A stretch of 64,000 bases of DNA from Acidobacteriota bacterium (GTDB lineage Bacteria > Acidobacteriota > UBA890 > WLXD01): positions 1,280,001 through 1,344,000 of the forward strand of contig CBDBHB010000009.1 of the NCBI GenBank assembly GCA_965205505.1. The letters are read 5' to 3'. Positions 44,854 to 59,556 of this stretch are shown one piece after another. Under the pieces are notes generated by a model, which was given only the letters and a program-made list of their open reading frames with translations, was not told the DNA's origin and made no database searches. The position numbers were made by a program, and so were the translations under genes. Numbering within the stretch: the first letter of the stretch is position 1; the number at the start of each line of letters is the position of its first letter.

Positions 44854-45513
44854 ATGCGCCCGCCTCGAGTTGCCGTTACCTTCGCCGTCGCCGCCATCGC
44901 CATCGCTGTTTTCGCTCTCACTGTGACCTCCGCGCCGGCGCAGGTAGGCATCAACCAGAGCCTGCTCAACCCGAACCTGGCCACCGAGCAGGAGCTCGCC
45001 GCGGTGCCGCACGTTGGTGTCGACGGCGCCGCGACCATCATCGGCGGAAGACCTTGGGTGAGCGTCGCAGCGCTCGACACGGCGATCGGCGGCGGGCTGA
45101 GCGACGAGCAGCGCGATGACGTCTACTCGCGTCTCTGGCTGCCAATCAACCTGAACGACGTGACCGACGCCGAGATTCAGCTGATTCCCGGGGTCGGCCC
45201 CCGTATCGCGCACGAGTTCGAAGAGTCCCGGCCGTATGCGGCGCTGCCGCAGTTTCGTCGAGAGATCGGCAAGTATGTCGACGACGACGAGGTCGCACGC
45301 CTCGAGCAGTACGTCTTCGTGCCGCTAGACCTGAACTCGGCCTCCGCGGAGCAGCTCGCAACGATTCCGGGAATTGGTCCGCGAATGATCCACGAGTTCG
45401 AGGAGTACCGTCCCTACGTGGCGATCGAGCAGTTTCGTCGGGAGATCGGTAAGTACGTCGACGACGACGAGGTGGCGCGCTTCGAGCGCTACGTGGTCGT
45501 CGAAGGCCACTAG
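44854..45513 (+). CDS. Secreted ComEA-like helix-hairpin-helix repeat protein
   Basis: Signal peptide; three HhH-like units (VPHVG, IPGVG, IPGIG); 60-aa internal duplication. Confidence 0.75.
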   Translation: MRPPRVAVTFAVAAIAIAVFALTVTSAPAQVGINQSLLNPNLATEQELAAVPHVGVDGAATIIGGRPWVSVAALDTAIGGGLSDEQRDDVYSRLWLPINLNDVTDAEIQLIPGVGPRIAHEFEESRPYAALPQFRREIGKYVDDDEVARLEQYVFVPLDLNSASAEQLATIPGIGPRMIHEFEEYRPYVAIEQFRREIGKYVDDDEVARFERYVVVEGH

Positions 45514-45702
45514 TGGCCTGTAACAGATGATCGTTGCGTATCGTGGTGGCGAAATGGGTCCGGATGCCAGGCGCGACGACGAGACGATGTTTGCCCATCT
45601 TGGAGGAGGAGCAACGCCGCAGACGGGCCGATTTCGCAGCCATCCTGCGGACAGATGGGCAGTTGCGGGCGATATCGGCGTTGCGCCTCGTCGACGATGC
45701 CC

Positions 45703-45987
45703 CGGCAGGTCGTGGTGGAAGTGTGATGGGTCTGGTTACGCCGCCAAGGGCGCAGATCCAAGGCGCCGCGTCGCCGGCGATGCCCGTGCGCATCGTCTAG
45801 GAGCGGCAACGCCGGAGACGCGCCGTTGGCGGCGTAACCCGTAGGGCATAGGGCAAGTGGGAGTCACGGGCGATGGCGGCGTCTCTCCTCCTCGACGATG
45901 GCTCCAACATCGCCTCGTCGTCGATCCTTGCCCTAGCCCGTGAGTCCCACTTGCCAGACCCACCACACTTCCATCACGGCCTGCTAG
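45703..45987. repeat. Nested palindromic element B
   Basis: Left arm gcaggtcgtggtggaagtgtgatgggtctgg + caagtgggagtcacgggc pairs with right arm gcccgtgagtcccacttgccagacccaccacacttccatcacggcctgctag; absent from the 59.3-kb copy. Confidence 0.75.
45734..45839. repeat. Nested palindromic element C inside the left arm of B
   Basis: ggttacgccgccaagggcgc ... gcgccgttggcggcgtaacc (19/20 inverted match). Confidence 0.7.
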
Positions 45988-46080
45988 CATCGCCTTCCTC
46001 GCCGCGCCTTGATCTCACCCGCAAATCCCATCTGCGATAGGCAACGATCATCTGCTACAGGCCACTTCTATGAGAAGGCC

Positions 46081-46326
46081 TAGTTCGGTCAAGGGCAATG
46101 TGGTGCCCAGCGAAGAATCGATCTGCACGCCATGCTCCTATTCGCACTCTGGTGGACGAGGATTCAGGTCGTCCGGTGCATTCTGGGGTCCGTCCCGATT
46201 CGAGGCGCTGCAATCTAGCTGCCGAGCTCGAAGCTCGTAGTGACCTTCGCAGTCGCCCGGACCGGGCGGTCAGATCGATAACCGTTGGGTCGCGTCGCCC
46301 TACCGACCTCCTGGTTGCGGGTTAGT
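46081..46326 (-). ncRNA. Putative bridge/seek RNA of the IS1111 element
   Basis: Position typical of IS1111; stem-guide-hairpin-guide-stem at 46205-46256 with guide AGGUCACUA resembling target AGGCCACTA. Confidence 0.65.
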
Positions 46327-47373
46327 TCATGCTGCTGAAACCTCTACAGGTGCGCGCAACGGTTCGTACTCGTCTCCACTCAGCCACAGTCGGTGCAGCA
46401 CAACGGCGAGCTTACGGGCGACAGCAACTGCTGCCTTTTTGTTGCCATGAGGACCACCGCGTCCGGCCAGCTTGAGCCCCCAGCGTCTGAGCTCAGTATC
46501 GGGCCCGAAGGGGCCCAGGATGTAATGCGCCGAGCCCACCAACAGGCGTCGGAGCATTTTGTCGCCCGCCTTGGTTATTCGTAGCGCAGGGTCCTTGTCC
46601 CCCGACTGCCGTTTCTTCGGTCTCAGTCCCAGGTACGGGCCCACGGCTCTGGAGGTATTGAACCGCTCCGGCTCCTCGAGCGTCAGCACATACGCCAGTG
46701 CGGTCAGAGCTCCGACCCCGGCCACTTGCTGGAGCTGCTGTGTCTCCGGGTATCGCCCCTGGCACAGCTGCGCGATCTGACGCTCGTATTGCTGGATGTT
46801 GCCCGTCAGCATGGCGATCGTTTCAAGCACCGGCTCGAGCGCTCCCTTGAGCCGCTCCGGTATGTGCTCTGGCGCGGTGCGCGCGAACGCCGGCGTCGAG
46901 CACCTGGGAATACGACAACCGGCCGACTTGACCGCACCACGCACATGGCTCACCAACTGCGTGCGGCTCTTTACCAGAGCATCTCGGCTCCGAATCACGG
47001 CTAGATCCGCTCGCGCTTGTCTGCCTCGATGCTGCACCGTCTTAAGCAGCTTTGGGTCCATTCTGCCCACTCGTGCCAGGTGCTCGGCATCCAACCGGTC
47101 GGTCTTGTCGTGCTCGCCATAGATCAGCTTCAGCCGCCTCGGGTTAGCCACCAGCACCTCATGACCCAGTTGCTTCAACTGCTCACTCATCCACGGCGAG
47201 TGCGTTCCAACCTCCAGCACTACTCGAGCGGGCTCCTCGCACCCGAACCGCCTCGCCAGCCCCTCCGGGCTCGTCCTCACCCGCCCTTCCTCCATCACCC
47301 TGCCCTTACTGTCGAGCACGCACATACGGCTGTACCGGTCGCTTACGTCCAGTCCAATCGTTACACTCCTCAT
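46327..47373 (-). CDS. IS110-family transposase/recombinase
   Basis: GLDVS, VLEVG, KTDRLDA (DEDD RuvC-like), GVG..TA, YLGL.P...QSG serine motif, AVARKL. Confidence 0.95.
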   Translation of the reverse strand: MRSVTIGLDVSDRYSRMCVLDSKGRVMEEGRVRTSPEGLARRFGCEEPARVVLEVGTHSPWMSEQLKQLGHEVLVANPRRLKLIYGEHDKTDRLDAEHLARVGRMDPKLLKTVQHRGRQARADLAVIRSRDALVKSRTQLVSHVRGAVKSAGCRIPRCSTPAFARTAPEHIPERLKGALEPVLETIAMLTGNIQQYERQIAQLCQGRYPETQQLQQVAGVGALTALAYVLTLEEPERFNTSRAVGPYLGLRPKKRQSGDKDPALRITKAGDKMLRRLLVGSAHYILGPFGPDTELRRWGLKLAGRGGPHGNKKAAVAVARKLAVVLHRLWLSGDEYEPLRAPVEVSAA

Positions 47374-47500
47374 CGGCCAACCTCCTTGGGCTTCGAGCCC
47401 GTTACGTTTGAAGAAACGTTTGCAGAGCCGTCAGGCTACTGCGTTCAGGAGGTTGGCCTTCTCATCTCATCTAGAGCTTGCCCCCATCTCGACCCAGCAA

Positions 47501-47531
47501 TATGCAACGAACCTCTGTTACAGGACACTAG
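47501..47531. repeat. Degenerate element-A terminal repeat
   Basis: tatgcaacgaacctctgttacaggacactag versus consensus tatgcaacgatcatctgttacaggccactag. Confidence 0.6.
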
Positions 47532-47535
47532 CTCG

Positions 47536-48015
47536 ATGGTCCGACCGGCTCCTGCAGGTGGCGCCGGGATCACGAACGGCGTTGCCACGGCTGGCGGGCT
47601 TCGTCGTGGTGTGCTCGCGATCCTCCTGTTCGGCAGCATCGGGGTGCTCATCGAGCTGTTGCTGATAGGGCATACGGAGGACTGGTGGCAGATACTTCCG
47701 CTGGCCTTGCTCGGTGGCGTCATCGTCGTCGCCACGGCTGCTTGGTTTGCTTCCAGTGGCGCCGTGCTGTTGACGTTGCGCGTGCTGATGTGGGCTTGCG
47801 TGCTGAGCGGCGCGACGGGCCAGTGGCTGCACTATTCAGGCAACGCCGAGTTCGAACGGGAGATGTATCCGAACATTGCCGGGGTGGAGCTGCTGCGGGA
47901 GTCGATGAGCGGCGCCACCCCGGTGCTGGCCCCCGGAACGATGACCGTGATCGGTCTGCTGGGCCTGGTGTTCTCCTGGCGGCACCCCTCCTCGAAAGCT
48001 GGAGTTGAACCATGA
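47536..48015 (+). CDS. Hypothetical membrane protein
   Basis: Four hydrophobic segments, conserved-looking H..N.EFE.E and GATPVLAPG. Confidence 0.65.
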   Translation: MVRPAPAGGAGITNGVATAGGLRRGVLAILLFGSIGVLIELLLIGHTEDWWQILPLALLGGVIVVATAAWFASSGAVLLTLRVLMWACVLSGATGQWLHYSGNAEFEREMYPNIAGVELLRESMSGATPVLAPGTMTVIGLLGLVFSWRHPSSKAGVEP

Positions 48016-59226: not shown

Positions 59227-59278
59227 TCCTGGCGCGGCGAGGGGCGCGCTATTCCGAAAAGGGGCGCCTCTCAGGCCA

Positions 59279-59556
59279 CTAGTGGCCTGTAACAGATGAT
59301 CGTTGCATATCGCAGATGGGATTTGCGGGTGAGATCAAGGCGCGGGGAGGAGGGCGATGCAGTGGGCATCGTCGACGAGGCGCAACGCCGATATCGCCCG
59401 CAACTGCCCATCTGTCCGGAGGATGGCGGCGAAATCGGCCCGTCTGCGGCGTTGCTCCTCCTCCAAGATGGGCAAACATCGTCTCGTCGTCGCGCCTGGC
59501 ATCCGGACCCATTTCGCCACCACGATACGCAACGATCATCTGTTAGAGGCCACTAG
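59279..59556. mobile_element. MITE-like element A, copy 2 (uninterrupted)
   Basis: CTAG at both ends; 34-bp TIRs with 2 mismatches; no transposase. Confidence 0.85.

Follow-up and report, generated by a model that had tools for sequence, protein, structure and literature searches.

An insertion sequence (IS) assigned to the IS1111 group interrupts the end of a miniature inverted-repeat transposable element (MITE) in the genome of an Acidobacteriota bacterium. The element, its genomic copies, its target and the RNA that is predicted to guide it are described here. The window is the whole stretch of DNA analysed, 64,000 nucleotides (nt) long (C9:1280001-1344000 of genome G000, i.e., contig CBDBHB010000009.1 of assembly GCA_965205505.1), and positions without a contig name are those of the window. 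The locus consists of a first copy of the MITE (MITE A) with another repeat nested inside it, the IS with its transposase gene on the minus strand, and the tail of a MITE of a second type (B-type). Another copy of MITE A is found further along (Table 1).

Anatomy of the Insertion Sequence

The ends of the IS were set by using the element as a blastn query against the whole genome. The flanks of its 27 full-length copies, which are 98.7-100% identical, diverge exactly at 46067 and 47472. On the plus strand the left junction reads CTACAGGCCA-CT-TCT-ATGAGAAGGCC, that is, ctaca-ggcca (46060-46064), the core CT (46065-46066), tct (46067-46069) and the subterminal repeat (46070-46080). The right junction consists of the opposite repeat, GGCCTTCTCAT (47455-47465), ctcat (47466-47470), CT (47471-47472) and ag (47473-47474), followed by AGCTT. 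The subterminal repeats are perfect over 11 bp, with terminal extensions of 3 nt and 5 nt plus the core, and this layout recurs in relatives. Only the 2-nt core is common to the two junctions; the insertion is site- and orientation-specific and without target duplication. Excision of 46067-47472 in silico restores CAGGCCACTAG (caggccaCTAG), the word that ends MITE A copy 2 at 59547-59556. These junctions and the restored word are as the initial annotation had written them, and its classification of the element as IS1111-type also stands.

The transposase matches PF01548 (E 1.1e-17, residues 6-149, the DEDD RuvC-like domain) and, in its C-terminal part, PF02371 (E 5.6e-17). Against the NCBIfam model NF033542, “IS110 family RNA-guided transposase,” it scores 206.9 bits with a cut-off of 140. 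Section 6 of PMC11187229 gives a GL-P----S(t)G motif, a transposase of 330-350 amino acids (aa), subterminal repeats and a downstream non-coding region as features that distinguish the IS1111 group from the IS110 group. The protein contains GLRPKKRQSG, which corresponds to this motif, and its 348 aa lie inside the range; non-coding DNA amounts to 99 nt upstream and 260 nt downstream of the gene. On these features the element is assigned to the IS1111 group of the IS110 family.

Table 1: Features of the locus (window positions).
Feature	Position	Strand	Basis or remark
Unoccupied AGGCCACTAG, formed by the upstream gene end (Gly-His-stop) and the TA flanking the MITE	45504..45513	+	Sequence; G002 also has GGCCACTAG
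MITE A copy 1 (IS630-type), with nested 284-bp repeat	45513..46065	.	Arms of copy 2; absent at the orthologous locus of G004
Member of a second repeat family, nested in MITE A copy 1	45703..45986	.	Gap in the alignment of the MITE arms; many genomic copies
Left half of the interrupted target, AGGCCACT	46059..46066	+	Last MITE repeat bases and T of the flanking TA
IS1111-type insertion sequence	46067..47472	-	1406 bp with one copy of the CT core; equivalently 46065-47470
Subterminal inverted repeat, 3′ (right) IS end in transposase orientation	46070..46080	.	Plus strand ATGAGAAGGCC, 3 nt from the end
Predicted seekRNA/bridge-RNA-like region, conserved stems around variable guides	46124..46266	-	13-sequence alignment, consensus fold
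Putative donor guide, AUAGGAG	46135..46141	-	Sense copy of the 5 terminal nt at the IS right end and of the core (ATAGAAG), with one G for A
Putative guide 2, GCAGCUAG	46215..46222	-	Only the last 4 nt (CUAG) match the target consistently
Putative guide 1, AGGUCACUA, 9 nt	46238..46246	-	Complementary to target 5′-TAGTGGCCT-3′ (MITE end, core and an additional base), one of the pairs being G-U
Transposase gene, 348 aa, DEDD/RuvC-like N-terminal and PF02371 C-terminal domain	46327..47373	-	Open reading frame (ORF) translation, Pfam, NCBIfam
Subterminal inverted repeat, 5′ (left) IS end in transposase orientation	47455..47465	.	Plus strand GGCCTTCTCAT, then CTCAT, then the CT core
Right half of the interrupted target, AG	47473..47474	+	Junction sequence, genome-wide right ends
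55-bp B-type MITE tail ending CAGGACAC, then TA(G)	47474..47528	+	Comparison with B-type ends
MITE A copy 2, 272 bp, both ends unoccupied	59282..59553	.	AGGCCACTAG at 59547-59556; CTAGTGGCCT at 59279-59288

Genomic Copies and Site Specificity

The blastn search returned 33 rows, of which 27 are full-length copies and 6 are partial. The left end abuts AGGCCACT in 30 of 31 copies and AGGTCACT in the remaining one. The right end is followed by AG in 27 of 29 copies, by an extra CATCT and then AG in one, and by AA in one; a regular-expression count gave 30 right ends (28 AG, 1 AA, and 1 CA), one above the blastn total. All copies have one orientation relative to the target word. Recombination at a CT core (AG in transposase orientation) had been proposed initially, together with an alignment of the flanks of all copies as a check, and both agree with these counts: the left ends lie at one word or, in one copy, at its variant, and not in unrelated flanks.

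Past the AG the right flanks are mutually unrelated. Distinct sequences are found in 28 of 29, and 28 of 29 have at most 3 genomic matches, the exception being the flank of the window copy (34 matches). If the MITE inserts as set out below, the AG that follows the IS would be the remainder of a CTAG target, which would explain why nothing is conserved past it. Since the right flanks are distinct, and since recombination between IS copies swaps flanks and cannot create them, many separate insertions have occurred. On the left, 20 of 31 flanks fall in repeats with at least 30 genomic matches. Among the other 11, inspection by eye shows a terminal CTG-NNN-(C/G)AGGCCACT inverted-repeat end in 7 (solo ends or minimal repeat pairs) and a loose MITE-like end or none in 4 (C9:818914, C9:68587, and the pair C6:11751/C6:191362 with a common flank).

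The genome itself provides a control for this specificity. The intact word AGGCCACTAG is present at 109 sites, against 13.3 expected from base composition, and 30 further sites are occupied by the IS (~140 in total). By comparison, AGGACACTAG, which differs by one base and ends both the B-type MITEs and an IS630-like element, is empty at 87 sites and occupied at none (Fisher p = 2e-7). The variant AGGTCACTAG is found empty twice and occupied once, and among all single-base variants the IS occurs only at AGGTCACT. Insertions at AGGCCACTAG occur at either end of MITE A, in no fewer than 2 other related repeat families, at solo terminal remnants, and at the 4 sites with little or no MITE end. The IS thus appears to be programmed for the 10-bp word AGGCCACTAG and not for MITE A as such. 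The initial annotation had considered the IS as programmed for the ends of the MITE family, which would act as a multi-copy landing site. The landing site is multi-copy, the copies lie almost only at these ends and the element's own guide matches the site; the claim has to be narrowed in that the target is the word, which also occurs outside MITE A, and in that related MITE and IS630 ends reading AGGACACTAG are not used. Genome-wide, CTAG is depleted (5853 seen, 19712 expected from composition), and a large share of the existing CTAG sites may lie at the ends of IS630-type elements.

Some further properties of the copies were observed. At C9:2703637 the extra CATCT between the IS end and AG repeats the 5-nt terminal extension and is possibly a product of slipped or imprecise recombination. 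Three pairs of copies have one flank in common (C6:11751/C6:191362, C6:424494/C6:512432, and C6:424494/C7:9918); sharing of one flank only is the signature of rearrangement by IS-IS recombination or of duplicated segments at contig ends. The 348-aa ORF is kept in only 10 of the 27 full-length copies (which include C9:498709 and C7:50596). Twelve copies, each at its own locus, have the same 4-bp deletion (ACAA, nt 365 in transposase orientation), five have lost 1 nt at nt 509, and the substitutions form overlapping, non-nested shared sets. This suggests that defective copies spread in trans or that gene conversion occurs between copies.

The MITE as Target

MITE A is non-coding and is represented by 22 uninterrupted full-length genomic copies and many partial ones; most intact AGGCCACTAG sites are MITE A ends. 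The terminal inverted repeats of copy 2 are 34 nt long and 94% complementary, and the same arms are found in copy 1. The MITE superfamily, which is IS630-type, ends ...CAGGCCAC and invariably has CTAG as its insertion site, so each inserted end reads AGGCCAC-TAG. The closest congener, G004 (same genus), is 91-97% identical in the surroundings of the locus, and its sites orthologous to both window copies have neither MITE nor IS. A single CTAG is present there, where G000 has CTAG at both MITE ends; the empty sites read ...GAAGGACACTAGCTCGATGG... (copy 1) and ...GGCCTGCTAGACGAG... (copy 2).

Elements of the IS630 family insert into TA, preferentially within CTAG, and duplicate the TA, as stated in PMC2170065 and in the title of Tenzen and Ohtsubo 1991. 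The data fit MITEs derived from IS630/Tc1-mariner elements, which insert into TA within CTAG with duplication of TA. Duplications of TA and of CTAG are not separable by sequence alone, and the choice of TA follows the rule of the IS630 family. On this reading the MITE proper would end ...GGCCAC, the crossover CT would comprise the last MITE base and the first base of the duplication, and AG would be the rest of CTAG. Six genes for IS630-type transposases (DDE_3, PF13358) are present in the genome, with elements of 1190 and 1143 bp that have CTAG on both sides. One DDE_3 element has the ends TAGTGTCCTGAGTCAG... and TAGTGTCCTGAGTCAGAAGTTCG, near those of the B-type MITEs, which stand next to several IS copies, and not those of the A-type. 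No autonomous element with A-type ends was found: pairs of such ends 600-6000 bp apart are neighbouring MITEs or a MITE with the IS and contain no transposase-like ORF.

The MITE is found in large numbers in G002-G004 (100-132 matches to a 5-kb query, mostly to its MITE part). None of the four congeners searched contains a full-length copy of the IS, G004 having three fragments of 39-125 bp, and none matches the transposase at E ≤ 1e-40. Because the congeners hold the MITE and no full-length IS, the MITE family is older than the IS expansion.

Other observations concern the MITEs and their surroundings. The bases after many MITE ends are TGGCCT-, TGTCCT- or TGC-like and bring the junction close to the palindrome AGGCCACTAGTGGCCT (e.g., 45504-45513 and 59273-59282); the IS630-type transposase may have a palindromic target preference beyond CTAG. 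The nested 284-bp element replaces 3 nt of MITE A copy 1 and belongs to the second, very abundant family, with dozens of copies of ~275-283 bp, ~70% identity and the ends CAGGYCGTGGTGGAAGTG...; contigs from the public runs X2 and X16 lack it, with 45702 joined directly to 45987. MITE A, the nested element, the IS and the 55-bp B-type tail together form a 2,016-bp block (45513-47528) bounded by TA on both sides. The block is absent from G004, where the site reads GAAGGACAC-TA-GCTCGATGG. It may have arisen when MITE A inserted into a B-type MITE whose left part was then deleted as the two direct left repeats recombined; alternatively, a composite with an A-type left and a B-type right end may have moved as one unit with the IS. 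The B tail also occurs by itself, as an identical stretch of 59 bp at C9:1239563.

Predicted Guide RNA

The 3′ non-coding region of the IS contains segments that correspond to both the target and the element's own end. In transposase orientation the order is ...GGGCGACUGCGA-AGGUCACUA-CGAGCUUCGAGCUCG-GCAGCUAG-AUUGCAGCGCC..., where AGGUCACUA and GCAGCUAG are the putative guides 1 and 2; the donor segment stands in the context AGAGUGCGA-AUAGGAG-CAUGG. Guide 1 sits between the conserved blocks GACUGCG and AUUGCAGC in the 260-nt region. RNAalifold, applied to the 13-sequence alignment, predicts a stem closing the guide loop and a second stem, with 14 pairs of which 5 show compensatory changes. The guides are identical in all 31 copies of the IS found in the genome. 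Position 4 of guide 1 is a U, which would form a G-U pair with AGGCCACTAG, an A-U pair with the AGGTCACT/AGGTCACTAG variant and a mismatch with AGGACACT/AGGACACTAG; this agrees with the occupancy of the three words.

Covariation of Guide and Flank in Relatives

When 301 genomes of the phylum were searched with the transposase protein, 16 of them, G000 included, gave matches at E ≤ 1e-40. One further relative, locus L021 of a Myxococcota metagenome-assembled genome, came from a transposase search of genome contigs. The transposases of the relatives are 43-68% identical. Twelve element variants with a readable right end were compared (G113 and G275 have no right end on their contigs), and the ends of the G129, G262 and G217 elements were fixed by multiple copies within each genome. 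A common plan is present in all relatives: a subterminal repeat, a 3-nt tail, a 2-nt core (AG, AA or GG), and conserved blocks around variable segments.

Guide 1 pairs with the core and right flank over at least 8 contiguous positions in 7 of the 12 variants (the window element, G011, G129, G217a, G217b, G262a, and L021). Six of the 11 diverged relatives have a different guide at the guide-1 position, which matches their own flank (Table 2). Eight Watson-Crick pairs at a fixed register have a probability of ~1.5e-5 by the author's arithmetic. G217a and G217b come from the same genome and have near-identical scaffolds with different guides and different flanks. The closest relative, the 68%-identical element of G011 (same order), does not differ from the window element at the IS ends; its guide differs at 3 of 9 positions.

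Table 2: Guide 1 and the core and right flank in relatives (the leading letter, where given, is the target base before the core).
Variant	Guide 1	Flank	Pairing
G011	CGGACUCUA	T-AG-AGTCCG	9/9; left flank checked
G129	CGACCUGCUG	C-AG-CAGGTCG	10/10
G217a	AGCCGACUU	AA-GTCGGCT	9/9
G217b	UGCGCGUUU	AA-ACGCGC	8/8
G262a	UGUCGGGUU	AA-CCCGAC	8/8
L021	CACGCGCUU	AG-CGTGTG	8, one G-T
G262b	UGUCGGCUU	AA-CCCGAC	7/8 (one mismatch in 8)
G090	CCGGCGGCUU	AG-CCGGCG	Partial
G170, G262c, G075			No convincing match

For guide 2, CCGAUAA of G262b matches CCGATAA, and that of G011 matches GAGTAG (6/8). In 10 of 12 variants the donor segment is a perfect copy (7/7) of the tail and core of the right end, and it tracks the differences between AGA and GGA and between AG and AA.

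Targeting of MITE ends by the whole clade was also considered and was rejected for G129, whose inferred target has only 4 near matches in its own genome. The closest relative, that of G011 (G011:C1:3908074-3912196; L042 and L032; 63-68% aa identity), is split by an insert of ~2.7 kb between IS positions ~549 and 543.

Proposed Mechanism

The observations are very probably explained by RNA-guided, site-specific insertion of an IS1111-type element into the 10-bp word AGGCCA-CT-AG, a word that has been multiplied by a MITE family. The 3′ non-coding region would encode a molecule similar to a seekRNA or bridge RNA, in which a conserved stem closes a loop with two guides. On one target strand, guide 1 (AGGUCACUA) would pair with the MITE end, the core and an additional base; on the other, guide 2 (..CUAG) would cover the core and the two bases that precede it. 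A second RNA segment (AUAGGAG) would recognize the right end of the element and its core. Such an RNA would be made, bind the transposase and direct recombination. The transposase would exchange strands at the common dinucleotide (CT on the plus strand of the window, AG in transposase orientation), leaving no target duplication and fixing the orientation, with the MITE ends serving as a multiplied, mostly intergenic landing pad.

By analogy with the family, as described in PMC12288879, transposition would proceed through a circle, whose junction may carry a promoter. In transposase orientation this junction would read ...GGCCTTCTCATAGA-AG-ATGAGATGAGAAGGCC..., and on the plus strand ...CTCAT-CT-TCTATGAG.... 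A TTGAC motif is kept in the IS right end of all relatives; a strict scan of 45950-47550 for sigma-70 promoters gave 0 sites. Public sequencing runs were also considered. Part of the stretch is contained in 20 of the 24 runs listed, from 11 studies, and 4 were examined, three as contig sets and one as sparse Hi-C reads.

Several points weigh against RNA-guided insertion. A permissive Rfam search over 45400-47700 matched no family, and the RNA-labelled public run gave contigs only, which cannot show transcription or RNA ends. The fold of the non-coding region as a single sequence is barely better than that of shuffles (z = -1.94) and failed to recover the comparative structure. In the window element guide 2 matches 4 nt only, so that guide 1, or contacts with the protein, would have to provide most of the specificity; one base of the donor segment departs from the IS right end, and no guide for the IS left end was identified in the non-coding region. 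Three of the 12 variants have no match between guide and flank and one has a partial match; these variants are single copies whose ends were placed by motif, and the fault may lie with the ends or with the model. Neither a circle joint nor an empty-allele joint (46066-47473) was seen in the 4 runs, which, as contigs and sparse Hi-C reads, give no evidence either way. Of the empty alleles that the initial annotation had expected, those present are the 109 intact words and the G004 loci without MITE or IS; the empty allele of the exact locus was not seen in these runs.

Among these points, the short match of guide 2 (CUAG only), the three unmatched variants and the fact that the RNA was not observed (Rfam without a match, runs of contigs or sparse reads) also speak for recognition by protein only, in which the transposase would read the MITE end directly and the complementarity of the non-coding region would be incidental. 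This is very improbable, as seven of the 12 variants pair with their own flank at one fixed position of the scaffold, including the two from one genome, base 4 of the guide behaves as G-U, A-U or mismatch, and the family is experimentally RNA-guided, as reported in PMC11187229.

A second alternative assumes few insertions followed by passive spread, with units of MITE and IS multiplied by MITE transposition, segmental duplication or IS-IS recombination. Four or five copies are associated with the end of one MITE A subfamily (ctgctac), of which no empty copy was seen; C6:424494 and C7:9918 have the far flank of the MITE in common, two pairs of copies have a common left or right flank, and the block 45513-47528 is bounded by MITE-type ends and TA. 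This scenario is nonetheless highly improbable, since 28 of 29 right flanks are distinct and IS-IS recombination cannot create new ones. Insertions are found at either type of MITE A end, at B-type and C-type ends and at solo remnants, and composite transposition would need a second MITE end beyond the IS, which only the window copy has.

It is hardly credible that the element was wrongly delimited, with AGGCCACT and more belonging to the IS, in which case the common left flank would be trivial and there would be no target. Conservation beyond 2 nt is indeed confined to the left flank, a pattern that often reflects wrong IS ends (PMC11187229 section 13), but 109 sites have the full word and no IS, the word is a MITE end mirrored in the other arm of the MITE, left-flank similarity ranges from 8 bp to >250 bp over several different repeat families, the orthologous loci of G004 are without both MITE and IS, and the end structure of tail plus core recurs in relatives with unrelated flanks.

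The insertion leaves the inverted repeat of the MITE intact to the last base and changes only the base after ...GGCCACT. Copies of MITE A adjacent to an IS (n = 10) have a median identity to the consensus of 92.3%, compared with 98.5% for free copies (n = 12; Mann-Whitney p = 0.006); this comparison is confounded, as 4 of the 10 IS-adjacent copies belong to one subfamily and two represent one duplicated locus, and it is not counted as support for immobilisation of the MITE by the IS, which the initial annotation had considered possible. A wider and rather unlikely reading would combine these aspects. The guide would have been retuned in nature to the junction of inverted repeat and target duplication, and the IS would mark only inserted MITE ends, might hinder their excision and would ride on MITE-bounded composites such as the 2,016-bp block; frameshifted copies (the 12 with one 4-bp deletion) would spread in trans as guide-bearing non-autonomous elements.

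Relation to Known Systems

A landing pad made of the repeats of another element is already established, and no new kind of mechanism is involved. In Coxiella burnetii, 20 of 21 IS1111 copies are reported beside a QMITE2 fragment, and the IS-associated MITE copies are more divergent (PMC5896051). The present case is similar in that copies of an IS1111-group element sit in a multi-copy MITE. It differs in the site, which in Coxiella is described as a GTAG palindrome 10-20 bp inside the MITE (PMC5896051) and here consists of the last bases of an IS630-type inverted repeat and the flanking TAG. Other members of the IS110/IS1111 family use repetitive extragenic palindromic (REP) sequences, according to PMC12288879.

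IS4321 and IS5075 target the inverted repeats of the Tn21 family (title of Partridge and Hall 2003; PMC11187229 section 13). Like the present element they belong to the IS1111 group, have subterminal repeats and use the terminal inverted repeat of another transposon. Their sites lie inside the 38-bp Tn3-family repeat. Unlike these, the target described here straddles the junction of inverted repeat and duplication of a Tc1/IS630-type MITE. Compared by tblastn with plasmid-borne relatives, the transposase is at best 36.4% identical, and all 4070 matches are below 60%.

The IS1111-type seekRNAs of ISEc11, ISPa11 and ISKpn4 have two short matches to opposite target strands, which overlap at the crossover, the top-strand match lying 5′ of the bottom-strand match (Siddiquee et al. 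2024, PMC11187229 section 9). The present element resembles them in the non-coding region downstream of the transposase gene (tnp), in two opposite-strand matches overlapping at the crossover in the same order, and in its subterminal repeats, a transposase of 330-350 aa and the GL-P----SG motif. Unlike them, one putative guide has 9 nt and the other in practice 4 nt, and the RNA is here a prediction from sequence.

IS621 has as its target a REP-like multi-copy sequence. The logic of target loop and donor loop and the common core dinucleotide would be similar in IS621 (PDB 8wt6) and in the element described here. The transposase matches the solved IS621 and ISCro4 proteins weakly (C-terminal half of IS621, E 4.5e-8). 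Unlike here, elements of the IS110 group are described as having the RNA upstream of tnp and no subterminal repeats (PMC11187229, PMC12288879).

Biological Significance

What is particular to this system is the use of the inverted repeat/duplication junction of an IS630-type MITE as the site, together with an unusually clean specificity control within a single genome. The literature searches made turned up no IS110/IS1111-type element directed to the termini of IS630-type MITEs; ISfinder or the target logos in PMC11187229 (>300 IS) may contain one.

With ~140 perfect sites of which 30 are occupied, 87 sites that are one base off and never occupied, and a rare A-U variant that is occupied, the genome offers a natural and internally controlled view of seekRNA/bridge-RNA specificity. 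The clade of diverged IS1111-type elements, with transposases of 43-68% identity and covariation of guide and flank, is useful for deriving guide rules and for choosing programmable recombinases. For the bacterium, one mobile element uses the ends of an unrelated transposon family as a landing pad. This pad keeps ~30 copies of the IS largely outside genes and may in this sense be selectively “safe,” and it makes many sites for recombination between repeats.

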